Virus record (IMG/VR): IMGVR_UViG_3300024270_002235
Reading direction: 5' to 3' (one strand)
DNA from: an uncultured virus (IMG/VR IMGVR_UViG_3300024270_002235)
Taxonomy: Duplodnaviria > Heunggongvirae > Uroviricota > Caudoviricetes
DNA length: 64,000 bases
Shown: positions 2,941 through 62,303 of the stretch, in pieces
Layout: each line of letters opens with the position of its first letter
Position numbering within the stretch: position 1 is the stretch's first letter
The notes under the pieces: model-generated
Told to the model about the DNA's origin: nothing
Databases searched by the model: none
What the model saw: only the letters and a program-made list of their open reading frames with translations
Made by a program: the position numbers and the translations under genes

Positions 2941-3900
2941 TAAGTATAGTCTCACTATAAAAACCTTTTCTGATATACGGCGAAACTCCTGAGAAGGACA
3001 ACGCCTTGGAAGTTATTTAAACGTTTTAAAATGAAGGTGATAAATATGGATAATAGATTTTACATTTATGCTTATGTAAGATTAGACAAAAATAATTATT
3101 TTTATATAGGTAAAGGTACTGGTAATAGATGTTATGAACATCATACAGGTAGGAATAAACATTTTAAAAACATAATAAATAGTATAGACTATAAAATTGA
3201 AATATTATATGATAATTTAACTGAAAATGAAGCTCTTGAATTAGAAGTTAAGACTATTCATGATTTAGTGTTTAATGAAGGTTATAGTATTGAAATAAAT
3301 GGTTATAACACTAAAAATGAAAATCATCTTGTAAATCAAACATGGGGTGGTGAAGGTGTGAGTGGTTACACACATACCGAAGAAGAACGTAAAAAATGTT
3401 CGTTATTTGGTGAGAAAAACGGTATGTACGGTAAAAAAGGTGAGTTATCACCACATTATGGAAAAACATATACTGAAGAGCATAAAGAAAAAATACGTCT
3501 AGCTAGCCCTAATAGAAATGAAGTTTATTGTGTAGAGTTGAATAGAACTTTTAATTCATATAGAGAAGCTGAAAAAATATTACTAGAAGAATATAATATA
3601 AATTGTTCACATGCATCAATATCTGCAGTTTGTAGAGGAAAACGAAAACATGCGGGTAGAAATATAATAACAGGTGAACTTTTATATCTACATTTTGAAA
3701 ATAAAAACGTTTAAATTACACCAACAACGACTGAGCGAAAAGGCATTTATGATTAATGATGCAACAGTCTGATCTCTAGATATAATCTAACAATGAAACT
3801 AGAGAGGAATGGGCGGTCTGAAATAACGACCTAAAGAAGATCCATTCCCGCCATATTAATATATGGTCAGTAATTTATGAATAATGAAAGTAACAGAATG
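2941..3900 (+). mobile_element. group I intron 1
   Basis: P1 agtgtgat/gtctcact with U2940.G2949 wobble; P3 ccttttc/gaaaagg; P7 gactg/cagtc; terminal G3900; splicing restores K-C-D|Y-M-E in frame. Confidence 0.9.
3046..3714 (+). CDS. intron-encoded GIY-YIG homing endonuclease with NUMOD3-like DNA-binding tail
   Basis: FYIYAY...YFYIGKG...R, conserved E and N-x-x-x-GG, then HTEEE/NGMYGK/HYGKTYTEEHKEKI motifs; SD aaggtga favours ATG 3046. Confidence 0.85.
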   Translation: MDNRFYIYAYVRLDKNNYFYIGKGTGNRCYEHHTGRNKHFKNIINSIDYKIEILYDNLTENEALELEVKTIHDLVFNEGYSIEINGYNTKNENHLVNQTWGGEGVSGYTHTEEERKKCSLFGEKNGMYGKKGELSPHYGKTYTEEHKEKIRLASPNRNEVYCVELNRTFNSYREAEKILLEEYNINCSHASISAVCRGKRKHAGRNIITGELLYLHFENKNV

Positions 3901-4647
3901 TACATGGAACAATCACACAAAAACAATACGCCTACTGCAAGATTCTATAATCAAGTTATAGATGCTTTAGGAGGAATGTCACCTGCTAAGAGAGATGGTT
4001 ATCATGATGCTATAGACGGTTTCCCTTGTATAGTTTACTATAATGAAGGTGGAGTAGATGCTGATGGTAAACCAGCTGAAAATATATTAGTAGGTTCATT
4101 TATGTTTAATATAGATAAAGAGGGTAAAGAATTAGGATTCGAATGTGATTTATATGATGAAATCGGTGATTTAATCGGTAATGGTAAAAATAGTTGTATT
4201 TCATATGAAGCAACTGCCAATGCAAGTGACACAGCTGGATGTTTCTATAAATTATCTGAATCTATAGTAAACGTTTATAATTATTATTTAGAAGACTCTT
4301 ATAAAGAATATTTAGAAAAATATGGTCTTACTTCTGAAAAATGTACTATGGATCAATTTAAAGCAGGAATAAATGATGGAACTATAGAAGAATATATGAC
4401 ATTCGAAGAATTCTCTGCTGACTATAGTGAAACTGATTATATAATGTCAGACTTTGAAGCTAGATATAGTTATTGTGAAGATGACGAAGAAGCTACTTAT
4501 AAACCAATGATTGAATTAGTTAACTGGGTAAGTAACTCAATAGATAATGGTACATTTAAGGACGACTTAGAAAAACATCTTGATTTAACATACATGATAG
4601 CTTATTATCTACAAATGCACGTATTTACACAAGTAGATAACTGTGGT
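3901..4647 (+). CDS. exon 2 of the spliced CotH-like kinase protein
   Basis: YMEQSHKNN...AIDGFP...G.FMFNIDK...FEARY...QVDNCG; in frame with exons 1 and 3. Confidence 0.85.
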
Positions 4648-4734
4648 AAAGTTTATGCCTCAGTATAAAAACTTACTCTGATATACGGCGAAACTCCTGA
4701 GAAGGACAACGCCTTGGAAGATTATAATTGATAA

Positions 4735-4746
4735 AACAATTCTCTA
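4735..4746 (+). promoter_or_regulatory. late-type promoter inside intron 2 ahead of the endonuclease
   Basis: AACA attctc TA, 25 nt before ATG 4772. Confidence 0.5.
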
Positions 4747-4771
4747 TTATTAAACTAATGGAGTGATGTGA

Positions 4772-5473
4772 ATGGAAAAATGTTATTACGTATATCAATA
4801 CATTCGTTTAGATAACGGAAGTATATTTTATATAGGTAAAGGTAAAAATAATAGATATCTTAGATTGGATAGTAGAAATGATCATTTTATGAATATAATA
4901 AATTCTGTTGATTGTGTAGTTGAGATAATATATAATAATTTAACTGAGCGTGAGGCGTTGGAACTAGAAATGCAAACTATACATGATTTGGTATTTAATG
5001 AAGGTTATAGTATAGATATTCATGGTTTCAATGATAAAAGTAATGATAATTATTTGACTAATTGCACATGGGGTGGTGAAGGAACTAGTGGATTTTCTAT
5101 GAAACAATCACAAGAAACTATTGAGAAGAGAAGACTAAAGAACATTGGAAAGAAAAGAACTCCTGAACAAAAAGCACGAATGAAAGAAGCTTGTAGAAAT
5201 CGTAAGGAACCTAATAGAAGCAAAGAATCTATAGAAATACAATATTCTAAAAGTAGTTATACACAAGGTACACATGTACGTTGTATTGAACTTGATAGGG
5301 TATTTCCAAGTAAACGAAAAGCTTTAGAGTGTATGAAAGAGGAGTTTGGTATAGAATTTAATAAAAAAACCTTTACAAAGCATCTCAATCATGAATTGAT
5401 AAAAGGTCATGATTGGTATGGAGAAATATTGATAAATGGAGAATTGGTACAATTGCATTGGGAAATGATATGA
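4772..5473 (+). CDS. intron-encoded GIY-YIG homing endonuclease
   Basis: YYVYQY...IFYIGKG...R; N-terminal half closely similar to 3046..3714 (TIHDLVFNEGYSI, TWGGEG). Confidence 0.85.
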   Translation: MEKCYYVYQYIRLDNGSIFYIGKGKNNRYLRLDSRNDHFMNIINSVDCVVEIIYNNLTEREALELEMQTIHDLVFNEGYSIDIHGFNDKSNDNYLTNCTWGGEGTSGFSMKQSQETIEKRRLKNIGKKRTPEQKARMKEACRNRKEPNRSKESIEIQYSKSSYTQGTHVRCIELDRVFPSKRKALECMKEEFGIEFNKKTFTKHLNHELIKGHDWYGEILINGELVQLHWEMI

Positions 5474-5664
5474 TTATAATCACCAACAACGACTGAGCGA
5501 GTAAGGCTTGAACTTTCAAGTATGCAACAGTCTGATCTCTAGATATAATCTAACAATGAAACTAGAGAGGAGAGGTCATCAGTAACCAGACTGATTTAAG
5601 AAGAACCTTTCCCGCCATATTAATATATGGTCAGTAATTTATGAATAATGAAAGTAACAGAATG

Positions 5665-8600
5665 AAAAATAGTATGTGGGATACATGGGATGGAGTTAAA
5701 TTCTACCCTAGACCATACGATATGGATACACAAATGGGATTATCAAATACAGGTACTGAGATAATCCGTGTTGACTCAGAAATAATACCTTCATTATCTC
5801 CAACTTTATTGGATGGGGATAAAAACTTTATAGGATATAGTTATACAGATACTACAACAGATTTAAGATATATGAACTATAATACTAGAACTAGTAAATT
5901 ATGGAATGCATTCGGAACTGAATTTAAAGAAGAAATAAAAAAAGCATATACTACATTAAGAAATGCTAAAGTATATGACGTTGATAATATATTCAAAGCT
6001 ATTTCAGCTGACACTGATGACAAGATAGGAAAAATTTATTTCAATAAAGATGCTGCATCTAAATATTTATCTCAAACAACAGCATCCGACTCTACTTACT
6101 TACAAATGCTTCATGGTAATAGAGCACAAAAATATAAAAAATTCTTAAAAGAGAGATTAATATTCTTAGACACAGTATTTGGATACGAAGAATCAGCAGC
6201 ACAACCTGATACTTTAAATAGTTATATAGGATTACGTTCAGATGCTGCTTACGGACAAGGGGAAGGAACAACTTTACGTTGTTATGTTGGTGTAAGTGTT
6301 TATTCTCCACAGTATGTAACAATAACTATCGGTTCTGGAGCTGACGGTAAAGTTACTGGATATGTTGGACCTGAATCTAGATATAAAGACCCTGATACTG
6401 GAATAGAGTATGAAGGTGCATTATTCTCATTCCCTATAAAAGGTATAAATAAAGAGATGGGTATAACTGGAGCAGGCAATATTAAGCAAATTAATAGATT
6501 ACAAACACTTAACTTAACTGAAGCCAGAATAGAAAAAGCACTTAAATTACTTGAACTAGACGTTTCATATTCAAACCGTATGGAAGGTCTAAAAATAGGT
6601 AACAATAAATACTTAAGACATCTTAACTGTACTAACTCATACAGATTAGGTACAGCAACAGAATCACAAACTCTAGATTTATCGAACTGTGTTAACTTAA
6701 AAACAGTTGATTTATCTTACACTAAATTTACAGGGGTAATGTTCCCAACAGATACAGTTCTTAACTCTATAAACTTAACTAGTAGTAGTATTAAAAACGT
6801 ATCTATAGACGGTGCAGAATTCCTAGATGACATAAAAATAACAAACTGTGAAAATATTAATAAATTTGAACTTAATAGATGTAACAGAATAGCAGTTGTT
6901 GACGTTGCTAACTCAACAATACAAAACTTCATAGTAACTAACTGTGAAAATGTTACAGAAGTAAACTTATCTGGTTGTAAATCAATAGCTGGATTCGACG
7001 TTACTAACAGTTATAATATAGTAACATTAAATATGTCAGGAAATACAAGTCCTGTAATGAATGACCTTAAATTATACTCAATGTATAAATTAAATAAACT
7101 TATAATATCACAAACAGATACTGTTCATACATTAAGATTACCTAAATATTTAAATGAAGAAGAAGCATTCAAAGCTGTAAATGGTGATCCTAATGCTAAA
7201 TTATGGGATAATTTAACTTACTTAGATGCATCGACTTCAAGTATACGAAAAATACAATATGGATCAGCTGATGTCGACGATGTTGTATTAGACATGAGTC
7301 AATTGAAAAAACTTACTACACTTAAACTAAGTAACTGTACTTATTTTACAGAAATAAGAAATATCAATTATACTGGTCCTTTAGCATCATTATTCTATAA
7401 CTGTAGAGGTCTTACTAAGATAACAGGTGTATTAACTAACGGAAATACTAGTATAAATTCTATGTTCCAACAATGTTTCGTTTTATCAGACATAGATGGT
7501 TTATCTTTAAACTTTACTGGTGTAACTAGTGCTAATAGTACATGTGATAGATGTTTCCGTATGAAAACACCTATGCTTAAGAAAATACTATATGCATGTG
7601 GTGAATCATTAACTAGTGCGACAGGTATGTGTCATATGGCAGGTCTTGACGGTTATGAAACTATATTAGGTACTGCAGAAGATACTACTAGAACAATACC
7701 ATCGGATTTATTTGCTATGAATACTAAATTACAAAACGTTTCAGGATTCTTCGATATAACTGGATACACAACAGTTCCTGGAGATTTATTTGACCCATGC
7801 GGTGCAACACTAACTAACTGTAATAATACATTCGGTAGAATGAGAAATTTAACAACAGTAGGAGCAAGTTTATTACATAATAAACCTAATTTAACTACTG
7901 TATCTCAAATGTTTGCATCTGACGGAAGTCTTACTGATTATATAAATGAAAGTCCTGATATATTTATTGGAAGTTATAATATTACTTCAACAAAACAAAT
8001 GTTCAACAATTGTACTAACTTAGCAGTTTCTGAAGAACTTGGATTAGGAGAAATGATGAAACCGTTAACTTATTTAACTGATGCTAGTTTTATGTTCTTT
8101 GGTTGTTCTAATAACCTTAACTGTGAAATACCTGATGGATTCTTATCAACAAATACTAAACTTGTTAAGATAAATGGTATGTTCCAAAACTGTAGTAAAT
8201 TACCAAAATTACCAGCAAGTTTATTTAACAAATTAGGAGGTACTGCTAAATTCCCTAATTTAACAAAAGCTGTAGGTGTGTTTGGTAACTGTACATCAAT
8301 GGAAGGTATTGTTGAGTCAACTTTCTTCTTAGGAGCTGAAAACTTACTAAATATAGGTATGGACCATGAGGATAATACTTATATGGGAACTACTAGATAT
8401 ACATCTAGAGGTATATTTGAAGGAACTCAAATAACTGGTTATCATGAAACATTCTTAAACGTTGTTCCTAAAGTGCAAAATGTTTCAGGAATGTTTAGAA
8501 ACTGTACTTCTCTTAAAGATTGTCATTACTATAAAGGTTCACAAGTTGAAACTCGTAATAATGGTATAAGTGAAGACTTATTTATAGAAAATAAACTTTT

Positions 8601-9975
8601 ATCTGATACATATTACATGTTCGCTGGATGTAGTAGTATTGAAGGACATATTCCTAGAAATTTACTTGTAAATTCTAAATCGTTACTAAAGAACGTTTCA
8701 TATATGTTCCTTAACTGTTCATTATTAACAGGTGTAAATTTAGATGCTACTAGCGATAATGATGTGCAAACTGGTATATGTGCAGAATGGTTTAAAAATG
8801 GTATAGCGTTAACTAACGTGGCAGGATTTATGCAAGGTTGTAGTTTATACACAGGACAAATACCTGATGATATGTTAGAAGGCTGTGCTAGTTTACAAAG
8901 AACTGATAATCTATTTAACGGTTGTAAAAATATTGTAGGATCTATTCCTCTAGGATTATTTGATGCGTGTAGAAAAACTATCACTACTACAGCAAGTATG
9001 TTTGCAAGTTGTGAAGGATTAGATCAACCTATACCTGTTGGACAATATAACGAAGTTGAAGGTATAGTAGAATACGAACTTGTAGCTAAAGGAACTGAAG
9101 GAGCTATGCAAGTTGTTGAAGTAATGGAAGACCCATTCACACAAGTTGCTTATTCAGACGTTGTTACATTATCACCAAACTTAGCAACTATAATCAACGC
9201 AAGTGGTAATTATTACGTATTACCTAAGGTAGGACCAAAAACTGAAGTTGTCGTTCCAGGATTACTTGCAAACTGTATCCAATTAACTTCAATAGCAAGT
9301 ATGTTCTATGCATGTAAGAAAATAACTGGTGGTATACCACACGATTTATTATTTACAGAAAATAACAATATTAAATATACTAAATTACAAGATGTTTCAA
9401 GATTATTCTATGACTGTGAAAAAATTTCTGAACTTTATCATGAAACTGAGACTGGTATAGATTATATATGTAGTCCAATGTTATTTGATAAGTGTCCAGA
9501 ACTTGTTAACTGTTCATCAATATTCCGTGCAATGCCTGGTATACCAAGTACTGCGAATATACATCCACAAATGTTTAGTAAACAAAATAAAGTTACAAAT
9601 ATTTCTTGTTTATTCAGATGTACAAATGTTACTGGAGCAGTTTCTCCATTATTATTTGCTAACTCAATAAATACTATAACAAGTGCAGCTCAAATGTTTG
9701 CATTCTCAAAAGTTAGTAGTATAGGACCTAACTTCTTAAATGGTGGAGGTAGAAATACTAAGCTTAAAAATATTTATGGTATGTTCTACGGTTGTTCATC
9801 TCTTGAAGGTACTGCACCTGAATTCTGGAATGGTGCTAAATTCACCGCTATGGGTGGAGCAGACTCTAACGGATTCGCAGGAGCACTTAGAGGTTGTACT
9901 AAATTAACAAACTACGCTACTGCACAGGCAGCAAATACTGCATGGACTGCAGACCAACCAATATATGGAGAATAA
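5665..9975 (+). CDS. exon 3: end of CotH-like kinase domain + LRR + BspA-like repeats
   Basis: KNSMW...FYPRPYDMDT (CotH metal-binding motif), then LxxLDLS-type LRRs and MF..C..L repeats. Confidence 0.85.
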   Translation, partial: KNSMWDTWDGVKFYPRPYDMDTQMGLSNTGTEIIRVDSEIIPSLSPTLLDGDKNFIGYSYTDTTTDLRYMNYNTRTSKLWNAFGTEFKEEIKKAYTTLRNAKVYDVDNIFKAISADTDDKIGKIYFNKDAASKYLSQTTASDSTYLQMLHGNRAQKYKKFLKERLIFLDTVFGYEESAAQPDTLNSYIGLRSDAAYGQGEGTTLRCYVGVSVYSPQYVTITIGSGADGKVTGYVGPESRYKDPDTGIEYEGALFSFPIKGINKEMGITGAGNIKQINRLQTLNLTEARIEKALKLLELDVSYSNRMEGLKIGNNKYLRHLNCTNSYRLGTATESQTLDLSNCVNLKTVDLSYTKFTGVMFPTDTVLNSINLTSSSIKNVSIDGAEFLDDIKITNCENINKFELNRCNRIAVVDVANSTIQNFIVTNCENVTEVNLSGCKSIAGFDVTNSYNIVTLNMSGNTSPVMNDLKLYSMYKLNKLIISQTDTVHTLRLPKYLNEEEAFKAVNGDPNAKLWDNLTYLDASTSSIRKIQYGSADVDDVVLDMSQLKKLTTLKLSNCTYFTEIRNINYTGPLASLFYNCRGLTKITGVLTNGNTSINSMFQQCFVLSDIDGLSLNFTGVTSANSTCDRCFRMKTPMLKKILYACGESLTSATGMCHMAGLDGYETILGTAEDTTRTIPSDLFAMNTKLQNVSGFFDITGYTTVPGDLFDPCGATLTNCNNTFGRMRNLTTVGASLLHNKPNLTTVSQMFASDGSLTDYINESPDIFIGSYNITSTKQMFNNCTNLAVSEELGLGEMMKPLTYLTDASFMFFGCSNNLNCEIPDGFLSTNTKLVKINGMFQNCSKLPKLPASLFNKLGGTAKFPNLTKAVGVFGNCTSMEGIVESTFFLGAENLLNIGMDHEDNTYMGTTRYTSRGIFEGTQITGYHETFLNVVPKVQNVSGMFRNCTSLKDCHYYKGSQVETRNNGISEDLFIENKLLSDTYYMFAGCSSIEGHIPRNLLVNSKSLLKNVSYMFLNCSLLTGVNLDATSDNDVQTGICAEWFKNGIALTNVAGFMQGCSLYTGQIPDDMLEGCASLQRTDNLFNGCKNIVGSIPLGLFDACRKTITTTASMFASCEGLDQPIPVGQYNEVEGIVEYELVAKGTEGAMQVVEVMEDPFTQVAYSDVVTLSPNLATIINASGNYYVLPKVGPKTEVVVPGLLANCIQLTSIASMFYACKKITGGIPHDLLFTENNNIKYTKLQDVSRLFYDCEKISELYHETETGIDYICSPMLFDKCPELVNCSSIFRAMPGIPSTANIHPQMFSKQNKVTNISCLFRCTNVTGAVSPLLFANSINTITSAAQMFAFSKVSSIGPNFLNGGGRNTKLKNIYGMFYGCSSLEGTAPEFWNGAKFTAMGGADSNGFAGALRGCTKLTNYATAQAANTAWTADQPIYGE

Positions 9976-9983
9976 TATTTTTT

Positions 9984-10018
9984 AAAATACATAGAGGACT
10001 TTTTCCTCTATGTATTTT
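9984..10018 (+). terminator. intrinsic terminator
   Basis: aaaatacatagagga/tcctctatgtatttt inverted repeat. Confidence 0.75.
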
Positions 10019-10024
10019 ATCTTT

Positions 10025-10064
10025 GTAAAACATGAGAATTTCAATTATATATTATATCGTCGAA
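10025..10064 (+). promoter_or_regulatory. early-type promoter
   Basis: GTAAAA 10025, TCAATTATATATTAT 10041-10055, CGAA 10061. Confidence 0.75.
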
Positions 10065-10096
10065 TACAAGTAGTTAATTTAGAGGAGGTAATAAAT

Positions 10097-10330
10097 ATGA
10101 AAAAATCAACTTTATATTTAATAGCTGATATAGTGAATTCAGTAGAATCTTCTAATCAAAAATTATATGAATTATTAGATACAATGAATCTTTCACCAGA
10201 TGAAAGAGATAAAGTTTTAGAAAGTATATATGTCATAGTAGAAAAAATAGAACAGATAAAAAGATCTAATGTAAGTCAATTAGATAATCATATAGATGTA
10301 GATCAAATAGAAAAAATAAGTAGATTCTAA
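10097..10330 (+). CDS. hypothetical early protein (77 aa)
   Basis: SD gaggagg before ATG 10097; the track start at 10010 lies upstream of the promoter. Confidence 0.7.
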   Translation: MKKSTLYLIADIVNSVESSNQKLYELLDTMNLSPDERDKVLESIYVIVEKIEQIKRSNVSQLDNHIDVDQIEKISRF

Positions 10331-10343
10331 GGAGGGGTAAAAT

Positions 10344-10856
10344 ATGGAGCAAGAATATTGTATAATATATGGTTATAATGATACAGACCCAGGTCCTTTT
10401 ATAGTAGGGGTTACAAAAGATCAGGATATGATAAATGGATTTAGAGAAGAACATTATCATTTCTGTAAAGGCGGTAATGTTGTTATAGATAGTTTCTATG
10501 ATAACTTATCAGCAGATTACGAGATAAAATATTCTGGAGGACATTATCTAACTCCAAAAATGATTACAGATTTTATGCAATATCTAACAGCAGAATATAA
10601 TCAACTAACAATGCTTATAGATACATTATCAAGAGATGTTGAATATTTTAAATTTAATGAAACTGAACAAGATATAATATCAGAAGGTTTAGGATTCTTA
10701 CATGAAACCTTATATGAAACATCATATGGAATGCATATGGAAAATAAATATGGTAGTGATGATATTTTAGATTCTATATATGCATCAGTTTTAGATGTTC
10801 CTGAGTGTTTAAATAGATTCCTATCAACTTACCAGCCTGAAGCTGGGTTATTTTAA
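10344..10856 (+). CDS. hypothetical early protein
   Basis: SD aaggaggg, 170-aa ORF. Confidence 0.75.
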   Translation: MEQEYCIIYGYNDTDPGPFIVGVTKDQDMINGFREEHYHFCKGGNVVIDSFYDNLSADYEIKYSGGHYLTPKMITDFMQYLTAEYNQLTMLIDTLSRDVEYFKFNETEQDIISEGLGFLHETLYETSYGMHMENKYGSDDILDSIYASVLDVPECLNRFLSTYQPEAGLF

Positions 10857-10887
10857 AGATATAACCTTCGGGTTATATCTTTTTTTC
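10855..10887 (+). terminator. intrinsic terminator (UUCG loop)
   Basis: aaagatataacc-ttcg-ggttatatcttt + T run. Confidence 0.85.
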
Positions 10888-10892
10888 TTACC

Positions 10893-10904
10893 TACAATTT
10901 TATA
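10893..10904 (+). promoter_or_regulatory. late-type promoter (TACA variant)
   Basis: TACA atttta TA. Confidence 0.5.
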
Positions 10905-10920
10905 AAAGGAGAGTGATAAG

Positions 10921-11613
10921 ATGAGATTAGTTCCAAAACAAATAGAAAGTTATAAAAACGATAGACTTATAGAGGAAGTCAATATTAACAACGTTCCAGA
11001 TGTTGAGATGATTTACAATATAGTATCTGAAAAGGATAAAGTAAAAACAGTTAAAACATGTGAGAGAATGATACGTTCTAGCTTAGAATATAAAGAGTAT
11101 ATTAAATATCTAAAAGAATACATAGATATGACTAAATGTAGTTTCTTTGGAAATTCTAAAATGGACCATTATTCTAAATTTAAAGTTGAGATACACCATT
11201 CACCATTTACTTTATATGATATTACAATGACTGTATTACTTAAACATCTTGATTATTATGGAGAAATAAATCTATTTGAAGTATGTGAAGAGGTTATGAA
11301 ACTACATTATCAATGTAGAGTAGGATTAATACCGTTATCTACTACAGTACATAAGTTAGTACATGAAGGTATGCTATTTATACCTGTACAAAATGTACGT
11401 GGAGATTGGTTAACATTCTATAAAGAGTATGAACCTTATATGCCTCAAGATATGAAAGATAAATTAAAATCTATCGTTAAATTCTCTAAAGAATGTCAAG
11501 ACTATTCGTTATTAGAAACTAAGTTTACATATGTAGATGTAGATGGATTTAGACCTTTATCTCTATTAGGTCAAGAAGAATTCATGAAGAGAATCGTTTC
11601 AGATCCAAAATAA
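10921..11613 (+). CDS. HNH-like (beta-beta-alpha-metal) protein
   Basis: C...EIHHSPFTLYDI...VGLIPLSTTVHKLVH; paralog of 22249..22923. Confidence 0.55.
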   Translation: MRLVPKQIESYKNDRLIEEVNINNVPDVEMIYNIVSEKDKVKTVKTCERMIRSSLEYKEYIKYLKEYIDMTKCSFFGNSKMDHYSKFKVEIHHSPFTLYDITMTVLLKHLDYYGEINLFEVCEEVMKLHYQCRVGLIPLSTTVHKLVHEGMLFIPVQNVRGDWLTFYKEYEPYMPQDMKDKLKSIVKFSKECQDYSLLETKFTYVDVDGFRPLSLLGQEEFMKRIVSDPK

Positions 11614-11623
11614 TTCATTATTA

Positions 11624-11635
11624 AACAAATAGTTA
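11624..11635 (+). promoter_or_regulatory. late-type promoter
   Basis: AACA aatagt TA. Confidence 0.6.
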
Positions 11636-11658
11636 AAACACGAAAGGAGCGTAGAAAA

Positions 11659-11991
11659 ATGGAAGAAGAAGTAAGATACTATCCGTATAGTATGATAGGA
11701 GAATTAGTGAATGCTGATAAGGGTCGTATTACTTATATGTTAAAAGCAATGCAGATATTGGCAGTCGAAGAAAATCCTAATACTACTTGTAAAATGGGTA
11801 AATTATGTGTACATATAGATTTCAAACGTGAACACTTTAATGATTTATATCCAAAGTATTTCAGAGAATATTTTGATTACAAGAACGGGAGACAATATTT
11901 CGTATTTGAGATAACTGATGAATTTGTTGAGTTTGTTAAAGATAGAATAGAGAAAGTGGGGTGCTTATATAATGTACAATTCAAACAATAA
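11659..11991 (+). CDS. hypothetical protein
   Basis: SD aaaggag, 110-aa ORF. Confidence 0.7.
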   Translation: MEEEVRYYPYSMIGELVNADKGRITYMLKAMQILAVEENPNTTCKMGKLCVHIDFKREHFNDLYPKYFREYFDYKNGRQYFVFEITDEFVEFVKDRIEKVGCLYNVQFKQ

Positions 11992-12469
11992 ATACTGTAC
12001 ACTAGAGACTCTACTAAATGAATTATATTGTTTATTTGAAGTAAATTCACCTGTATTTACTGATGAGCTAGGTTATAAATGGTATGAATTAAGAAATGTA
12101 CTTGATATATTAAGAATAAATGAAGATGAATATATAAACGGTTATTATTTAATGACTATTGAGGATGAGACGTTCATATCAGAAGAGGGTATAAATATGT
12201 TATTAATAGAATATGAAAATGAATTTCGAGATGAAATTCTAAATTATATAACAGGAGATGTTATGCCAGATATAAAATCAGATTCGATGTATTTGGGGTT
12301 GCAAATATTAAATGACATGAGAACTGCCTCAATAGAACATTCTTGTTATTGTGAAGATAGTGATGTATTAATGACATCTGTTAAAGTACAAAAATATACT
12401 GACAATAAAATGAAAAGAATGAATAAAAAACATAAAATGAAAAATAGTAAAAATAATTTTAGAAAATAA
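11972..12469 (+). CDS. Bro-N-like DNA-binding protein
   Basis: WYELRNVLDIL...FISEEGINMLL...YITGDVMPDI resembles Bro-N (WF..DV...L / ISE.GLY.L / W...VLP.I). Confidence 0.55.
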   Translation: MYNSNNKYCTLETLLNELYCLFEVNSPVFTDELGYKWYELRNVLDILRINEDEYINGYYLMTIEDETFISEEGINMLLIEYENEFRDEILNYITGDVMPDIKSDSMYLGLQILNDMRTASIEHSCYCEDSDVLMTSVKVQKYTDNKMKRMNKKHKMKNSKNNFRK

Positions 12470-12484
12470 AATTTCATATAGTAT

Positions 12485-12496
12485 AACAACTAATTA
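12485..12496 (+). promoter_or_regulatory. late-type promoter of the ncRNA
   Basis: AACA actaat TA immediately before a GC-richer structured tract. Confidence 0.6.
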
Positions 12497-12819
12497 GGGA
12501 GATGGAAGGGACAGAGAAGCGTGCCAGTTCAGTGTCTGCAACACTGTTCGAAAGCCTTAGGTAGCCACAGGTACAGATGATTTCCACCACAAGGGAGCCA
12601 GATAATTCAATCCATCAACTAGTTATGTTATACAGCTGATAACATAATGCATCGTATGCTTTTGCAGAGATTAGCGATGTTGTCGATCGTGTGTAGAGTT
12701 GGTGTAGAAAAAGCCAACGTTTTTATATCAATGTGGATAAGATATATACGCATGTGAGACTAAACAAAAGATAAATAGATGTATATAGTGAAGTCATATC
12801 ACTATATACATCTATTTTT
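12496..12819 (+). ncRNA. structured non-coding RNA of unknown family
   Basis: Own promoter and terminator, no credible ORF, raised GC, multiple nested stems (see findings). Confidence 0.65.
12773..12819 (+). terminator. intrinsic terminator
   Basis: 19-bp perfect stem aaatagatgtatatagtga/tcactatatacatctattt. Confidence 0.8.
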
Positions 12820-12934
12820 CCGTACTTGAAAACTAAATAAAAAATATATTTTATCAAATTTTATTGGAGGTAAAATTCTAATGATCTCAGAGAGATCTTA
12901 GCGTAGTCCTATGACTACTTATAGTAATGTTTGT

Positions 12935-12974
12935 GTAAAAAGGTATCAAATCAATTATATATTATGTAAATGAA
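12935..12974 (+). promoter_or_regulatory. early-type promoter
   Basis: GTAAAA 12935, TCAATTATATATTAT 12951-12965, TGAA 12971. Confidence 0.75.
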
Positions 12975-12998
12975 TAATAAATTTTAGGAGGTATTTAT

Positions 12999-13565
12999 AT
13001 GGGAAAAATTATAATAACTACAGATGGAAGTTCTATAAGTGCTAATAATGAAAAAGGATTTGATGCAGCTTCAGCATTTGCTATTTATTATAATAACAAA
13101 TTAATTCATAAAGAATCTAAACTTTTATTAAACCATACAAATAATTATGCTGAAATGTATGCAATTTACAAAGGTACGAAATATTTAGTAGAAAATTCTA
13201 CAGAAATATTTGATGCTGAATCAGTTATGATAGTAACAGATTCTCAGTTATGTGAGAAAACTTTAAATGAATGGATGAAAGGTTGGTTAAAGAAAACTGA
13301 CAATGAAGTATTAATGAGTACAACAGGTAAAGTAAAAAATCAAGAACTGATCAAATCTGCATATATAAATATCTTATTATTAAGTCTTACAATTCCAGTC
13401 TATGTTTGTCATATAAATTCCCATAATAATGAAAGTAAGATTCCTGAAATGCATAAGAAATTTGTCAATAAATATTTTGACATTGATATAGAAGAATTTA
13501 AATTAATATTCGAAGGAAATCAAATAGTAGATAAACTTGCTTATGATACATTAAATGAAAAATAA
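12999..13565 (+). CDS. rnhA: ribonuclease HI
   Basis: ITTDGS, TNNYAEMYA, IVTDS, HINSH, GNQIVDKLA catalytic motifs. Confidence 0.9.
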   Translation: MGKIIITTDGSSISANNEKGFDAASAFAIYYNNKLIHKESKLLLNHTNNYAEMYAIYKGTKYLVENSTEIFDAESVMIVTDSQLCEKTLNEWMKGWLKKTDNEVLMSTTGKVKNQELIKSAYINILLLSLTIPVYVCHINSHNNESKIPEMHKKFVNKYFDIDIEEFKLIFEGNQIVDKLAYDTLNEK

Positions 13566-13575
13566 TATTTTATGT

Positions 13576-13587
13576 AACAACAAAATA
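13576..13587 (+). promoter_or_regulatory. late-type promoter
   Basis: AACA acaaaa TA. Confidence 0.55.
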
Positions 13588-13624
13588 TGTTGAAATTTAA
13601 ATAAAAAATGGAGGTAATGATTTT

Positions 13625-14833
13625 ATGAATAGATTAGATATACATGAATATTATATGAATATTGCAGTTCAAACTTCTTTAAGAAGTACATGTATCAGAA
13701 GAAAAGTTGGTGCAATTATAGTGAAAGATAATAGAATATTATCTACAGGATATAATGGTGCTCCTAGTGGTCTTCCAAATTGTTGTGATGATTGTAAGAG
13801 ATGTTATAGAAGTGCACATAACATACCTTCAGGACAAATGTTGGATATGTGCTATGCTGTACACGCTGAACAGAATGCAATTTTAAACGCAATGAAAACG
13901 GGAGAAGATTTAAGAGGAGCTAGTTTATATGTTAATACGTATCCTTGTGCAACTTGTATGAAACTTACATTACAAGTAGGTATTAGAAATATATATTTCA
14001 TAGACGAATATGAAAATGAATTTACAAAAAATATGGCAAAAGAAGCAGGATGTCAATTAGTTAAAATGGACGGAAGTATTTATCAAACTCCTGTAGGAAC
14101 AGAAGTTAAAACAACTAATGATTTAGATGCTATAGATCCTTTAGTTGCAGCTATATATAAATATAAACCAGGAACTGCAGAGTTTGTAGAAAACAGACAT
14201 AAGATATTTGAAGAAAAAGGTTTATATGAATATTATGATGAGATAATATATTATACAGATTATAGACCTGAAAATGAAGTAACTAAAATAGATAAAGAAG
14301 TATTGAAAAAGGTAGGGACACAATTTGCTAATAGAAATGAACTTGAATATAATGGAGATTTTGTAAGACAGTTAGTAGTTGGAGCTTTAGTATATGATGT
14401 ATTTACAGATAGTTTCATAGTGTTAAAATGTAAAGGAGAAAGATTAAAAGATAAATTAACATTAGTTCAAGGTCATGTTAGTAAATTAGAAAAAGGAAAT
14501 ACAAAACATAGATTACAAACAATTTTAAATAAAAACATAAAGAAAGAATTAACAGAAGAATTAACAATAGATCTTGAAGATATAATAAGTATAGAACCTT
14601 TATATTTAGTACAATCTAACGATAATAAAATAAGTTCAGAACATTTAGGAGTTATCTATCTAGTTAAAATAGATACAGGAAATATAGAATATGAAATAGA
14701 AAGTGGAGAACCAGAAAAGCATGATGTTGAAATGCTTTCATTATTTAAATTATCTGATTTAAAGGTAATAGATAAAATGGATACATGGCTTAGAAAAGTC
14801 ATAGTACAATTAAAAGACGATAAGAGAATTTAG
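13625..14833 (+). CDS. dCMP deaminase fused to a C-terminal NUDIX-like domain
   Basis: RSTC.RRKVGA, TGYNG, HAEQNA, PCATC; C-terminal GHV...KKELTEEL...HLGVIY. Confidence 0.85.
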   Translation: MNRLDIHEYYMNIAVQTSLRSTCIRRKVGAIIVKDNRILSTGYNGAPSGLPNCCDDCKRCYRSAHNIPSGQMLDMCYAVHAEQNAILNAMKTGEDLRGASLYVNTYPCATCMKLTLQVGIRNIYFIDEYENEFTKNMAKEAGCQLVKMDGSIYQTPVGTEVKTTNDLDAIDPLVAAIYKYKPGTAEFVENRHKIFEEKGLYEYYDEIIYYTDYRPENEVTKIDKEVLKKVGTQFANRNELEYNGDFVRQLVVGALVYDVFTDSFIVLKCKGERLKDKLTLVQGHVSKLEKGNTKHRLQTILNKNIKKELTEELTIDLEDIISIEPLYLVQSNDNKISSEHLGVIYLVKIDTGNIEYEIESGEPEKHDVEMLSLFKLSDLKVIDKMDTWLRKVIVQLKDDKRI

Positions 14834-14840
14834 ACAACTA

Positions 14841-14884
14841 AATAATATGGAGAGGATTGTATGATCCTTTTCATATTATTTTTT
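14841..14884 (+). terminator. intrinsic terminator
   Basis: aataatatggagaggat/atccttttcatattatt + T run. Confidence 0.7.
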
Positions 14885-14891
14885 GCCCACC

Positions 14892-14931
14892 GTAAAAAGG
14901 TACTATTTCAATTATATATTATAGTAATGAA
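14892..14931 (+). promoter_or_regulatory. early-type promoter
   Basis: GTAAAA 14892, TCAATTATATATTAT 14908-14922, TGAA 14928. Confidence 0.75.
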
Positions 14932-14958
14932 GAAAAATAAAATAGGGAGGTATTCAAT

Positions 14959-16893
14959 ATGGCAAATGTTGATAAAAATTCTAATAATTATACAATAGAA
15001 AGAATTAGAAAACCAATGGATAGAAGTAAATTAAATCAATTATATAATGAATTTAAATCTGATGATGATTATCTTAGTTATCATTTAGATGTTATAGAAG
15101 AAATGCATCCAAAATTTAAGATAACATTAGTAAATGATGAAGAAAAGAATCCGATTAAGAATTCTGATCTAAATCAATCATACGGATATATGGAAAAACA
15201 TCATGCAATAGAATTTATAGAAGAATGTATAGATAATAACAGAGTTAGTAGTAAACCAAAAGCAGTTATGCAAACAGGATTTAATAAGAAAGCATTAGAT
15301 AAATATAAAGCATTATTAGAAAGAGAGAAAGAAGAATGTGAATTAGTAAACGAATTTACAAAACCATCTTTTGAAGATATAATGAATAATGTTTATGTTA
15401 ATGCATATAATGGTTCAACATATCATATGAAAGATAATGATATTCCAGATGATTTAAGAGAAGATGTTGGAGTAACAATTCCAGGTTTAATAGAAACTAA
15501 AGAAGATTATTTTGAATTTGTTAAGAGATTAAAAGATAGAGGTAAAAATGGTTTAGGACGTTCTATATATGAACGTTATGAAGATTATGAAGATGCAAAA
15601 GATTTAATTGAAAGATATAAACAAGCATTGTTTGATAAGTATGGTGGTAAAGAAGAATTCTTCCATGCTAAAGATATGGGTGGAATGTTTGGAGCTTATG
15701 AGTATTATCCAACAGTTAAACCTAGATTTAAGAAGACAATGCGTAATATAAAATTAGATAGAGGTATGAACTTAAACGAATTAGCAATGGTAAAAGATAT
15801 GGGTAAACGTATATGGGAAGAATATGAAGAAGAAATAAATGCAATAGAAGTTGATGGATATGATTTCACAATGTATGAAAGCACACCACCTAAATTCAAA
15901 GACCTACCAGAAGACCTACAAATGTTCTATAAAACAGATAAAGATAACATTAATGGTTTCACACATACAGATAGATTCACATCTTATGAGCAATATGCAA
16001 ATTCTCTAATCGCATCTAAAGATCCAGATAAACAACTTGAAGGTTATAGAATATTAGAAGATATTAAGAGTGACATGATGTTAGATCAAGAAGATTATGA
16101 ATCTAGTTTTGTAAATGTTACAGACATAGATGATTTAACAATATCTTCAGTAATAAATCAATTCCAATATGATAAACTTATGGAAGAGTATAAGAATGAT
16201 TCTAGTGTAGTTGATAGTATAATGAAAGACAATAAAGAATCAAGAGAAGCTTATGAGAAATATCTAGAATATCAATTAATAGGTATCAATGGATATGATA
16301 TGGAAAATCCAATAGATAAGACAACAGTTAAAGGTTTAGTTAAATATGCAGCAGATTATGTATTTAATGAAGGATTTAAACGTAGAGAAGATGAAATATT
16401 ATCAATGAACTCAGTAGCTGAAAGTTTATATAAAGATTCTAAACATGTAAGCTTTGGTGAAGCGAGAGATCAAAGAACAGGAATGAGAAAAGGGGATAAT
16501 AAAATATCAGCATATGTAAGAGAAATAGCAGATGCAGCTAAGAAAAGTTTACAAAACATGAACTCAAATGCAGACAATGTTAATAGAGTTGATGGATCTA
16601 CAATAGATATAGGTGATGCAACAGGATATCAATTATTAAATAGAGGTTTAGATGGTTTTGAATTAAATCCAAATGAAGCTAGTCAATTATTAAATTACAT
16701 GAAGAATAATGATAAATTAGCTGAGAAAATTTATGAATTAAGTTCTGATTCTAAAGCAAATGATATGTTCAGTGAAAGAACTAATATAGATGATTTCGTA
16801 AATGAAGCTAAGCAAACAAGTAAACCTATGATCACAAAAGCTATGATAGAGAAAGCTATAGAAAATAATAAAAATGGTAGAAAGGGAGAATGA
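14959..16893 (+). CDS. hypothetical acidic early protein (644 aa)
   Basis: Long ORF, SD gggagg; no recognised motif. Confidence 0.8.
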   Translation: MANVDKNSNNYTIERIRKPMDRSKLNQLYNEFKSDDDYLSYHLDVIEEMHPKFKITLVNDEEKNPIKNSDLNQSYGYMEKHHAIEFIEECIDNNRVSSKPKAVMQTGFNKKALDKYKALLEREKEECELVNEFTKPSFEDIMNNVYVNAYNGSTYHMKDNDIPDDLREDVGVTIPGLIETKEDYFEFVKRLKDRGKNGLGRSIYERYEDYEDAKDLIERYKQALFDKYGGKEEFFHAKDMGGMFGAYEYYPTVKPRFKKTMRNIKLDRGMNLNELAMVKDMGKRIWEEYEEEINAIEVDGYDFTMYESTPPKFKDLPEDLQMFYKTDKDNINGFTHTDRFTSYEQYANSLIASKDPDKQLEGYRILEDIKSDMMLDQEDYESSFVNVTDIDDLTISSVINQFQYDKLMEEYKNDSSVVDSIMKDNKESREAYEKYLEYQLIGINGYDMENPIDKTTVKGLVKYAADYVFNEGFKRREDEILSMNSVAESLYKDSKHVSFGEARDQRTGMRKGDNKISAYVREIADAAKKSLQNMNSNADNVNRVDGSTIDIGDATGYQLLNRGLDGFELNPNEASQLLNYMKNNDKLAEKIYELSSDSKANDMFSERTNIDDFVNEAKQTSKPMITKAMIEKAIENNKNGRKGE

Positions 16894-16898
16894 TATAT

Positions 16899-19790
16899 AT
16901 GAAAACAAAAATAGTTAAAGTTGATGAGGTTAAAATTGAAAGTTTAATCAAAAAGAATTTCTCAGAAGAATTTATGAGAAAAGTTTATGATATATATTCA
17001 AATGATTATATTAGTATAGTTGAAAAGACAATAAGATTTGACAAAATATTTACAGAAGAGTTTGGAGGTAGAAAAGATTACAGAAGAATTGGTGAGGGGA
17101 CAAACAGATTTGTTTGTCTTCTTGATAACCATATAATTAAAGTAGCTTATAACTATTTAGCATTTATAGATAATATGAATGAATTAGCACAAGCTAAATA
17201 TAAAAGTAAATATTTAGCTCAAGCATATGAAACTAATGGAATAATATTAGTTAGTGAATATGTTACAGTTATGGATAAAGAAGAATTCTTAGATAGTCAA
17301 TTTTATATAAAAAGAATATTAAGTACATTAGCAGAAGATCAATCTTTAGTAGATGATGAAAGAAAATTCTATATCTTAGGAGATATGGGGACAAGTGAAA
17401 AGAACTACGGAAACTGGGGTAAAAGAATGAATGGTGATATAGTAGTTCTAGATTATGGGTATTTATATCAATTAGCAAACGATGAATGGAAAGAAGTTGC
17501 AAGATGTCCTATATGTGGAAGTTCATTAGAATATACATCAGATTATTCAGAATTAAAATGTACAAAAACTGAGTGCAATAATAAAGTTAAATATACAACT
17601 TTAAGAAATACATTTGGATATGGTGAGATAATAAAGAACATAAATAAAAATCTTGAGAATGATAGATATATCAAATTTGATGAAAATGGTACAATAAATG
17701 TAGATGTATTAGAGAAAGTTGAGATAGAGGAAGAAAAGAAAGAAGAATTTAAAATGCCAGAAGACATAGATAATAAAATAAATAAAGCAAGAGATATGTT
17801 CTTCAATATAACTGAAATGATTAAAGCTGATAGAATAACTATAGATGATTATTATGAACTTAAAGATGAAATAATAAATGAAAAAGATGAGTATGACGAA
17901 ATGTTATATCCATTCGTATTAGCATCTTTAGAAATGAATATGTACAATGTTGATAGTCATATAAAAGATTTCAATAAGTTTGCTAATGCTAGATATAATA
18001 AAATATATGAAGAACTAAAAGGAGAGTTTGAAGAGAGTCAAGAGAAAGAAGAAGTTGAAGATCTTCCAGATTGTTATGATGAGTTTGGTGAATTCTCTGT
18101 AAGAGGATATGAATCAGAATTAAAGATAATAGATAGACAATCTCAAAATGGTGAAAACGAAGTAATAGAAACATCTTTAGATGATTTCTTCAGTGCTGAT
18201 TTCTCAAATGATTTCACAAACATGTTTAATGCAGAAGATCCTGAATTAGATAACATGAGTAGTGAATTCTCATTAGATCATATAATGAACTTATTAAATA
18301 TAAATGATAAATTAGTAGCTGAAGAAAAAGCTGAAGAACAAAAAGCACAAGAAGAAAAAGAAAAATTAGATGCTGATTATTTAATATATGAAGCAGAAAA
18401 AGAACTTGAAGAAAAATATAATGATTTAGAAGATGCTTTAACAAAATTAATAACTTCAAGATATCCTACAGTATTAGATGAAGAAGAATATACAACAGGT
18501 GATGTATATAGAACATATCTAAATGGTGATTTTATAGATTTAGATTATAGTCCTAGAGTAAATGCTAAGAATATATTAGGTGGTTGGAAAGCAAGTGAAT
18601 TTGCATTCCCATTATACAGACACCTATTAATCAAATTTGATTATGATATGGATCAAGTTGAATCAGAGTTCCAAGCAATTTATAGAATAGATGAAGAAGT
18701 TAGAATTCCAGAAGATTTATATGGAACAGTTGAAAACAGAAATCCAGTAGTTGCTCAAATTATAAACAGATTCGAAGATGATATGAAACCAGCTAGACCT
18801 AACGTTATAATGAACCTAGGTAATGAATTAAACAACTATTACAAAGCTTTAGATAAATATTATGAACTAATGAAACCAGATAATAAAGATGTTGATATAG
18901 ATGATCCAAATTATTATTTAACAGTTGCAGAAGAAAGTGAACATATGACAAAACTATTAAGAGAAGCTAAAGCTGAATTAAAAGACGAATTAATAGATAA
19001 CGGATATAGATTAGAAGATATGTTACAAGACAACAAGATAGTTTATTATTATGATTTAGAAGCTATAATGTCTAATACAGAATTAAATATCTTAAACATA
19101 ATACAAACTTCTGATTTCACAGGAATAACTGACATCAAAGAATATATCTTAAATAAATATTATATGGAATATAATAGTATATTACCAGATAGTGTATTTG
19201 ATATATTCAAATATAACGGTTCAATGGTTAAAGAAGAAGGTTGTATAAGTCATCCAAGATTAATAAAACCTAGAATAAAAGCTAGATTAGTTAATAAGCA
19301 TAGTAATATAGACACATTTGAACCAGAAATATTTAATAGAGTTCAATATAAAGTAATCACAATAGAACAAAGATATGACATGTTAGTTAACATGGATAAT
19401 CCTGAAGAAATAACAAACATGCAAGATGCTATCTTAAGTATGAAATCAAAAGGAATATGTTATTCAGAAAGACGTATAGCTAAATACAATATTAAGAAAA
19501 CAAGAGATAATATGAGATTAGGATTAACAGAAAAAGAAATTAAATTAGTAGAAGAATTTGAAGATAAATTATCTTTAGAAGTTATTAAAGATGTTGACGG
19601 AATAGTTAAGAAAACAATAGTAGAATTAATGGATAAAGAACATAACATGTGTGAAGATACAAAAGAGTTCATGTATGATATGGCTAAACATGGATTAGCA
19701 GAAGCATATGCTAATAGAATGATGAAAATCCATATCTTAACAATGAATGGATGTACAACTAGATTAGATTATCTTACACATGTAGAATAA
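16899..19790 (+). CDS. protein-kinase-like domain + Zn ribbon + long acidic region
   Basis: IGEGTNR (Gly loop), IIKVA, NMNE, VSEYV, GDM..NYGNWG, VVLDYG; CPIC...C....C; SD gggag favours ATG 16899 (track start 16890). Confidence 0.7.
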   Translation: MKTKIVKVDEVKIESLIKKNFSEEFMRKVYDIYSNDYISIVEKTIRFDKIFTEEFGGRKDYRRIGEGTNRFVCLLDNHIIKVAYNYLAFIDNMNELAQAKYKSKYLAQAYETNGIILVSEYVTVMDKEEFLDSQFYIKRILSTLAEDQSLVDDERKFYILGDMGTSEKNYGNWGKRMNGDIVVLDYGYLYQLANDEWKEVARCPICGSSLEYTSDYSELKCTKTECNNKVKYTTLRNTFGYGEIIKNINKNLENDRYIKFDENGTINVDVLEKVEIEEEKKEEFKMPEDIDNKINKARDMFFNITEMIKADRITIDDYYELKDEIINEKDEYDEMLYPFVLASLEMNMYNVDSHIKDFNKFANARYNKIYEELKGEFEESQEKEEVEDLPDCYDEFGEFSVRGYESELKIIDRQSQNGENEVIETSLDDFFSADFSNDFTNMFNAEDPELDNMSSEFSLDHIMNLLNINDKLVAEEKAEEQKAQEEKEKLDADYLIYEAEKELEEKYNDLEDALTKLITSRYPTVLDEEEYTTGDVYRTYLNGDFIDLDYSPRVNAKNILGGWKASEFAFPLYRHLLIKFDYDMDQVESEFQAIYRIDEEVRIPEDLYGTVENRNPVVAQIINRFEDDMKPARPNVIMNLGNELNNYYKALDKYYELMKPDNKDVDIDDPNYYLTVAEESEHMTKLLREAKAELKDELIDNGYRLEDMLQDNKIVYYYDLEAIMSNTELNILNIIQTSDFTGITDIKEYILNKYYMEYNSILPDSVFDIFKYNGSMVKEEGCISHPRLIKPRIKARLVNKHSNIDTFEPEIFNRVQYKVITIEQRYDMLVNMDNPEEITNMQDAILSMKSKGICYSERRIAKYNIKKTRDNMRLGLTEKEIKLVEEFEDKLSLEVIKDVDGIVKKTIVELMDKEHNMCEDTKEFMYDMAKHGLAEAYANRMMKIHILTMNGCTTRLDYLTHVE

Positions 19791-36098: not shown

Positions 36099-36347
36099 AT
36101 GAATATATTAAAACCTATGATGGAAGTATTAGCTTTATGTGCAGGTGCTGCTGCAGGAATATTTATATTAAATTTTGTAAGTGAGGCTAAAGCAAAAAAA
36201 GAAAAAGAAGAAGTTCATCATAGTTGTGAAGGTTCATGTGGATGCCATCATGATGCAGACGGAGATTGTTGTGGAGGTGAATGCGGACATTGTGGAGAAG
36301 GACATGAATGTTGCGGACATTGTCATAAAGAAGATGACGCTGAATAA
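36099..36347 (+). CDS. membrane-anchored Cys/His-rich small protein
   Basis: Hydrophobic N-terminus; HHSCEGSCGCHHDADGDCCGGECGHCGEGHECCGHCH. Confidence 0.7.
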   Translation: MNILKPMMEVLALCAGAAAGIFILNFVSEAKAKKEKEEVHHSCEGSCGCHHDADGDCCGGECGHCGEGHECCGHCHKEDDAE

Positions 36348-62291: not shown

Positions 62292-62303
62292 TATTTCATT
62301 GTT
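62292..62303 (-). promoter_or_regulatory. late-type promoter
   Basis: AACA atgaaa TA. Confidence 0.6.

Follow-up and report, generated by a model that had tools for sequence, protein, structure and literature searches.

Bacillus phage AR9 carries two multisubunit RNA polymerases; its late transcription units begin at promoters of the form AACA-(6N)-TA/G, with the last base as the start site, and its early promoters follow the consensus AAATATATATTAT-(6N)-G (PMC5312081). The uncultured phage studied here, of which we analyzed one stretch of 64,000 nucleotides (the window), is of the same two-polymerase type and uses the same late promoter grammar, and the motif in front of its RNase H gene is almost identical to the AR9 early promoter motif. 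The sections of the AR9 transcription study available to us contain neither ‘noncoding’ nor ‘non-coding’ (PMC5312081). Short non-coding transcripts are described in Pseudomonas jumbo phages, where sRNA001-011 of 201phi2-1 and the sRNA upstream of phiKZ gp182 likewise consist of a phage-polymerase promoter, a short non-coding unit and a terminator; they too lie in intergenic regions or 5′ UTRs and are conserved among related giant phages (PMC11512511). These phiKZ-like sRNAs are <250 nt long and mostly derived from 5′ UTRs (PMC11512511). In contrast, the RNA described here, at 273–395 nt, is larger, comprises two domains with six covarying helices, and bears no sequence relation to them. In the literature on AR9-like and other jumbo phages we found no described RNA of this kind, only unrelated phage sRNAs.

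Other structured phage RNAs offer more distant comparisons. The put RNAs of phage HK022, about 70 nt long, act on the host RNA polymerase and make it resistant to terminators; the window RNA, like them, is structured from +1 and lies upstream of a terminator, but it carries no sign of read-through. GOLLD and ROOL are larger than the ~324-nt window RNA, and pRNA belongs to small podoviruses and binds the portal. GOLLD and ROOL are likewise ornate, often phage-borne and enigmatic RNAs; they form RNA-only homo-oligomers, and ROOL is of rumen origin (PMC12286853). Both have Rfam models, neither of which matches the window RNA. The phi29 pRNA, 174 nt long (PMC2241910), is also a phage-encoded structured RNA in which helices vary while the fold is kept and loops are mutually complementary (PMC4201828). 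In phi29 these loops drive kissing multimers, whereas self-association of the window RNA is suggested only by five complementary nucleotides, and no match to the Rfam pRNA model is found in the window or in the RNA alone. By these comparisons, we place the RNA as a new family among phage non-coding RNAs of enigmatic function, and as a gene it is well supported.

The window is AT-rich, at 29% GC (mean 0.294, sd 0.056), and its genes include those for split subunits of multisubunit RNA polymerases, for tail fibres and for enzymes of nucleotide metabolism. The nearest cultured relatives of one polymerase subunit are those of Bacillus phages BpSp, AR9 and PBS1, at 37% identity, and its AR9 counterpart is annotated as a virion RNA polymerase subunit. 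We assign the source to an uncultured clade of AR9-like jumbo phages from cattle-gut and faecal samples.

Elsewhere in the window, two ~930-nt insertions with near-identical ends (2944-3876 and 4669-5640) split a large gene matching PHROG 9915 (322-2943 and 5641-9975, with 3877-4668 between them). Each carries a homing-endonuclease-like ORF (3031-3714; 4772-5473, the latter PHROG 314), and they resemble two group I introns; Rfam at gathering score reports none. A small Cys/His/Gly-rich ORF with CxxC/HxxC-like runs at 36100-36347 (+), just 5′ of thymidylate synthase, accounts for a local GC peak and is not an RNA. The remaining large gaps of the window hold small ORFs and no RNAs.

The RNA locus itself lies in the gap 12470-12998, between a 165-aa ORF and an RNase H gene, all on the plus strand, and is laid out as follows.

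11972-12469, plus strand: 165-aa ORF of unassigned family, upstream neighbour of the non-coding RNA gene.
12485-12496, plus strand: late (non-virion RNA polymerase type) promoter AACA-N6-TA, matching the AR9 late consensus; predicted start A12496.
12496-12819, plus strand: non-coding RNA gene of about 324 nt, a promoter-to-terminator unit with relatives of 273–395 nt.
12773-12819, plus strand: intrinsic terminator with a 19-bp stem, a 7-nt loop and a U-run, from the terminator scan and covariation; hairpin of −22.9 kcal/mol.
12836-12950, no strand assigned: ultra-conserved AT-rich element with two palindromes, between the terminator and the RNase H early promoter.
12953-12972, plus strand: early-type promoter of the RNase H gene, AATTATATATTAT-N6-G (13-mer at 12953-12965), near the AR9 early consensus.
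12999-13565, plus strand: RNase H gene (PF00075, E = 1.4e-12).

An earlier note on this DNA had described a stand-alone, highly structured RNA here, with its own late promoter and terminator, in a region richer in GC than its flanks. Comparison of homologous loci confirms the central observation: 12496-12819 (+) encodes a structured non-coding RNA as a stand-alone unit, in a single copy. The compositional contrast is real as well: GC is 0.44 at 12500-12699, with a 120-nt peak of 0.50 at 12497 (window mean 0.294, sd 0.056), so that the content of 0.44–0.50 within 12497-12699 stands against 0.22–0.27 beside it. The 165-aa ORF upstream has no match in Pfam, PHROG or a tblastn search of phages; its AlphaFold model is mediocre (pLDDT 67), and Foldseek against the PDB returned nothing at E<=0.001.

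The late promoter, read by the earlier note as ending at 12496, has AACA at 12485-12488, six nucleotides, and TA at 12495-12496. It fits the AR9 consensus, it is kept in all five homologous loci, and the motif class is concentrated before genes: AACAA-N5-TA[AG] occurs 19 times in the window, 13 of them within the 4441 of 64000 nt (7%) that lie outside the list of 41 ORFs. Twelve of these 13 intergenic sites stand shortly 5′ of a co-directional ORF, in some cases a tail-fibre gene, and the thirteenth is the promoter of the non-coding RNA. A stricter form, ATAACAA-N5-TA, is not enriched in the window (2 seen versus 4.2 expected). The late-promoter motif also stands at 62303, before a single ORF of 5058 aa at 47027-62203 (−). 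The 13-mer AATTATATATTAT of the RNase H promoter recurs identically on the plus strand at five places in the window (10043, 12953, 14910, 19818 and 28556) and is one base off the AR9 early-promoter core; it is probably the early (virion RNA polymerase) promoter of the source phage.

At the other end of the unit, the terminator scan found the 19-pair stem at 12773-12817 that the earlier note had named as the RNA’s own terminator. The scan output placed this stem on the minus strand; a plus-strand U-run at 12815-12819 overlaps the stem base. Terminator-like sites number nine in 9000-17000, versus 1.3 in shuffles. The stem is conserved among the homologues and covaries, with 7 of its 21 pairs (helix 6 of the 3′ part) changed on both sides. 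The locus thus has a promoter of the phage’s own class at its 5′ end and a terminator before the next gene, which is separately promoted. We consider the RNA a separate unit because the RNase H gene has its own early-type promoter 3′ of the terminator, and because the lineage represented by L004 has another ORF downstream, lying between the conserved element and RNase H. Inspection of the five loci found no conserved ORF within the RNA: short frames are present in some copies and differ from locus to locus, in agreement with the non-coding assignment.

Homologous loci were found on four IMG/VR contigs (two lineages) and two metagenome contigs by protein and pattern scans. Searches of IMG/VR with the RNase H protein, with an alignment of the upstream ORF and with a 19-mer from the downstream element gave the same four contigs each time. 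The same 19-mer has 20 loci in metagenomes, two of them real, and 11 loci in GTDB genomes, none of them real; a 15-mer from an invariant loop has 95 loci in IMG/VR, among which only the known L004/L005 lineage is found. With the RNA as query, BLAST over 50,697 phage records gave no match; with its 8-kb context, it gave only two weak matches to dCMP deaminase. A model of domain 1 matches once in the window and once in each of four related phage records (4/4; 200–228 kb), and in none of AR9, BpSp and LPJP1 (0/3). The gene is single-copy per genome.

These loci yield five distinct RNAs: that of the window (324 nt), G001 (276), L011 (273), L016 (279) and L004 (395), the last having a P4 that is greatly lengthened by AU-rich sequence. 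Common to all five are the late promoter, an AGGGAG at the 5′ end, the terminator and the upstream neighbours, and each RNA opens with ~25 nt rich in purines and in G. The window RNA has the most diverged body, 54–68% identical to the other copies, next to an upstream ORF that is 83–86% identical to three of them. G001, the nearest record, keeps the flanks, and its BLAST match is limited to the last ~100 nt of the RNA. Assembled contigs from two sequencing runs (X18 and X19) share the 3′ end of the RNA and the downstream element with the window but diverge from it 5′ of 12726 and 12772, where their loose ends run on into other RNA bodies. One of these variants is L011-like, and the other is new and has C for U just before GUGG in an invariant loop; their loose ends indicate that more body variants of the RNA exist in cattle-gut samples.

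The fold that emerges from the five sequences has two domains: a 5′ one, in which P0/P1 close a junction holding P2 and P3, and a 3′ one made of P4, P5 and the long P6. Their elements are listed below with the support for each helix, numbered separately in domain 1 and in the 3′ part.

12497-12506, plus strand: 5′ strands of P0 (G12497, G12498) and P1 (12501-12506), pairing with 12619-12620 and 12611-12616.
12508-12525, plus strand: small hairpin GG.AC/GU.CC with loop AGAGAAGC, common to the window and the L004 lineage only.
12530-12546, plus strand: P2 hairpin CAGUGU/ACACUG (helix 3 of domain 1; 89.7% of cells paired).
12581-12597, plus strand: P3 hairpin UUUCC/GGGAG with loop ACCACAA (helix 4 of domain 1; 96% paired, 2/5 compensatory); the CCAC core is invariant.
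12611-12621, plus strand: 3′ strand of P1, then invariant CAACUA, from comparison of homologues.
12623-12647, plus strand: P4 hairpin UUAUGUUAU/AUAACAUAA (helices 1-2 of the 3′ part; 100% and 80% paired, 5/8 compensatory).
12649-12680, plus strand: P5 GCAUCGU/GCGAUGU, with a UGC/GCA hairpin inside it and, on its 3′ side, a bulge that is conserved and rich in purines (helix 3 of the 3′ part; 100% paired, 5/7 compensatory).
12682-12760, plus strand: P6, a long helix GUC..CGUGUGUA / UACGCAUG..GAC (helices 4-5 of the 3′ part; 80% and 95.6% paired, 9/19 compensatory).
12698-12718, plus strand: hairpin enclosed by P6 and present in the window only, an insertion absent from the other copies.
12724-12729/12741-12746, plus strand: apical stem within P6.
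12730-12740, plus strand: 11-nt apical loop of P6, AAUGUGGAUAA, invariant, with one A inserted in G001.

In the 3′ part, aligned with plain MAFFT and given its structure by RNAalifold, 93.7% of 270 cells are paired, versus 22.9–56.2% in controls with slid partners, and 26 of 55 pairs are compensatory, versus 3–7 in those controls; none of 500 shuffles reaches the observed values. All five sequences pair throughout P4 and P5, in which 3/6 and 5/7 pairs, respectively, are compensatory. In domain 1, whose alignment (A4) is model-guided and fitted to its model, 87.0% of 146 cells are paired, versus 35.5–49.6% when the 3′ partners are slid by 1–3 columns, and 16 of 30 pairs have changed on both sides, versus 2–5; again 0/500 shuffles reach these values. 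Eight of the 12 pairs of its first helix (P0/P1) have changed on both sides, and the P0/P1 closing helices and the central P2 hairpin appear in all five domain-1 sequences when each is folded separately. Both domains together have 42 of 85 pairs with changes on both sides (slid controls 2–7 per set), in a set of five sequences, three of them close to each other, from which the structures were also derived. By this comparison, the RNA has a conserved two-domain fold in which helices drift in sequence yet stay paired.

A check of the kind that the earlier note had proposed, a homologue search followed by covariation analysis, supplied four further versions of the RNA with helices kept by compensatory change (n=5), and it sorts the pairings proposed from the single sequence. 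The P1 helix gatgga/tccatc, P2 (cagtgt/acactg), P4 (ttatgttat/ataacataa), P5 (gcatcgt/gcgatgt) and, in P6, cgtgtgta/tacgcatg and tatatc/gatata are all supported by the comparison. The hairpin gttggt/gccaac is not conserved, being an insertion present in the window copy alone; gtgcc/ggtac gives way in the per-sequence folds to the GG.AC/GU.CC hairpin; and the T-loop-like TTCGAAA is missing in four of the five copies. The description ‘highly structured’ holds by covariation, among five sequences only, and fails by single-sequence folding energy, which is ordinary (z = −0.81 for the plus and +0.19 for the minus strand). As to strand, G-U pairs had been taken to favour a plus-strand structure, and several of them, in both domains, prove invariant among the homologues; since the opposite strand would have A-C mismatches in their place, the RNA is the plus-strand transcript.

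A few single-stranded pieces are invariant as well: CCAC(A) in the P3 loop, AAUGUGGAUAA in the apical loop of P6, an AGAU junction, the purine-rich bulge of P5 and CAACUA. Five nucleotides of the P6 loop, UGUGG, are the complement of CCACA in the P3 loop, from which we infer a pairing between the two. This contact carries no covariation because both loops are invariant; in G001 both differ, without clean compensation. A search of the window for the complement of the invariant loop as a target showed no excess (4 matches at <=3 mismatches versus 5 expected).

Public sequencing runs contain the stretch, at least in part, in 20 cases, with the best among faecal and bovine-gut metagenomes. Two metatranscriptomic libraries from one study (X16 and X17) have contigs on 12344-12618 (0 mismatches) and 12461-12724 (1 mismatch), and their depths, 57 and 30.1, are the highest in 10000-16000, where the others range over 2.3–12.3. 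These contigs begin upstream of the predicted start, and we take them as a weak hint that the RNA is expressed, and only a hint because they lack ends, strand and level and may include DNA. Two other runs (X18, X19) show no depth excess at the RNA; neither this nor the gaps in contigs of X16 and X17 just after 12724 and 12813 is a measure of absence or termination.

How might such an RNA act? Our general reading, which we hold with moderate confidence, is of a late RNA that acts in trans and offers its invariant loops for contact with a protein or with one another. As its motifs suggest, the non-virion RNA polymerase of the phage would start the RNA at the late promoter, late in infection, and the intrinsic terminator would release it. 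The RNA would then form a rigid scaffold offering the invariant loops to a partner, which could be a phage or host protein, making the RNA a ribonucleoprotein scaffold or a decoy, or the RNA itself. Self-partnering, as an intramolecular kiss or as head-to-tail self-association, is allowed because the invariant loops are complementary over 5 nt. A more specific proposal, by analogy with phi29 pRNA or the cages of ROOL and GOLLD, is that intermolecular CCACA/UGUGG pairing builds an RNA-only ring or scaffold for virion assembly or DNA packaging. We regard this as quite improbable; if true, it would be the first self-assembling RNA of its kind from a jumbo myovirus that encodes its own RNA polymerases.

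For a protein partner, we scanned 183 ORFs of G002, a 97%-complete relative of 227 kb, against Pfam (three giant ORFs left out) and found no obvious RNA-partner protein; among these ORFs there is no reverse transcriptase (RVT, E<=1e-6), Ro/TROVE, RtcB, Cas, Hfq or CsrA family. A retron or other reverse transcriptase-associated RNA was rejected on the same lack of an RVT family. G002 does encode an RNase R/II-like exoribonuclease (RNB, E = 1.8e-115; L157:6641-8764), an IF-1 homologue (L150:15334-15552), an FtsH-like AAA protease (L149:16106-17881), and a sortase (L150:17244-17906), some of which may be host DNA because IMG/VR labels the record ‘provirus’; a DEAD-box helicase is also present.

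The RNA could instead be a cis-acting leader, the 5′ part of a late transcript that continues into RNase H, dCMP deaminase and the next genes, and would then control terminator read-through in the manner of a riboswitch or of put. The order of late promoter, RNA, terminator, early promoter and gene agrees with what holds in AR9, where continuously expressed genes have both an early and a late promoter and 5′ UTRs reach 491 nt (PMC5312081); in phage 201phi2-1, transcription that stops early within a 5′ UTR gives rise to 8 of the 11 sRNAs (PMC11512511). One contig (12726-12944), from a run guessed to be RNA, spans the 3′ part of the RNA, the terminator and the downstream element. However, no pairing competes with the terminator: duplexes between the RNA body and the terminator 5′ arm reach −9.5 to −12.9 kcal/mol (shuffled arms −8, sd 2), far weaker than the hairpin at −23 to −25 kcal/mol across the copies, and we find neither an antiterminator nor any mutually exclusive terminator/antiterminator pairing, of the kind expected of a riboswitch or attenuator, beyond the shuffled controls. 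In addition, the downstream gene differs in the L004 lineage, and no Rfam riboswitch or leader matches. We judge a cis-acting leader to be unlikely.

A further possibility lies in the DNA next to the gene. The element at 12836-12950 starts 17 nt past the terminator, occurs once, and contains the palindromes GATCTC..GAGATC and GTAGTC..GACTAC. Its identity is 85–93% in all pairs of the five lineages, above that of the coding flanks, even in the lineage with an upstream ORF only 71–75% identical, and it matches G002 at 96% over 106 nt. None of its 31 predicted pairs is compensatory (0/31), which indicates conservation of the sequence itself and not of an RNA fold, and a mini-ORF behind its GGAGG is not conserved among the lineages; it is possibly a protein-binding, origin or promoter element. 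The RNA might accordingly activate or prime replication at this adjoining AT-rich palindromic element, with RNase H processing the hybrid; analogues would be ColE1 RNA II and the R-loop origins of phage T4. The uniqueness and sequence-level conservation of the element speak for such an origin-associated transcript, as do the RNase H gene downstream of the RNA in four of five lineages and the purine- and G-rich 5′ end (~25 nt) of the RNA in all five. Against it, the strong terminator ends the RNA before the element, the compensatory changes preserve a folded free RNA and not a hybrid, the promoter is of the late class, the site has neither an initiator protein nor a skew change, and L004 has an extra ORF between the element and RNase H. 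We find this role quite unlikely.

That the RNA has diverged from a known family (RNase P RNA, tmRNA, 6S, SRP, Y RNA, GOLLD/ROOL, a group I intron or the like) is very unlikely. The AGAU junction region bears a short-motif resemblance to conserved regions of RNase P RNA, and group-I-intron-like insertions lie elsewhere in the phage. However, Rfam 15, the RNase P models and ARAGORN are all without a relevant match at the locus, in keeping with the earlier note’s failure to assign the RNA to tRNA, tmRNA or another known family. At gathering score, Rfam 15 has no match in the whole window. At E<=10, it gives only microRNA-like matches to the terminator hairpin in the window, nothing for 12490-12775 alone, and only microRNA and CRISPR-repeat noise for the G001 copy, and the RNase P models match none of the window, the isolated RNA and the G001 copy. 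The bacterial model RNaseP_bact_b (RF00011), run on G001-G003, gave ~9.1-bit matches elsewhere and none at the locus, and bacterial RNase P RNA was rejected. ARAGORN detected neither tRNA nor tmRNA genes in the window or in G002, so that an RNase P would have no phage tRNA to process there. The view that there is no RNA gene at all, and that the locus is a DNA-level feature, a chance GC-rich gap or a small-protein gene, could draw on the ordinary folding energy (z = −0.81) and on the short ORFs in some copies, but it is extremely improbable given compensatory changes with G-U pairs on one strand and a promoter and terminator that are conserved where the short ORFs are not.

We return to a late RNA acting in trans as the preferred reading. 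At about 280 nt in its shortest copies, the RNA is compact and as such suited to structure probing and cryo-EM. Giant phages of the AR9 and phiKZ types run their own transcription, and their non-coding RNAs have barely been explored. The RNA described here is an example that rests on comparison and not on a single fold, with a phage-polymerase promoter, six covarying helices, invariant loops, a single copy per genome and no relative in Rfam. Should the invariant loops turn out to bind one another or a protein of host or phage, it may represent a new decoy, scaffold or self-assembling RNA.
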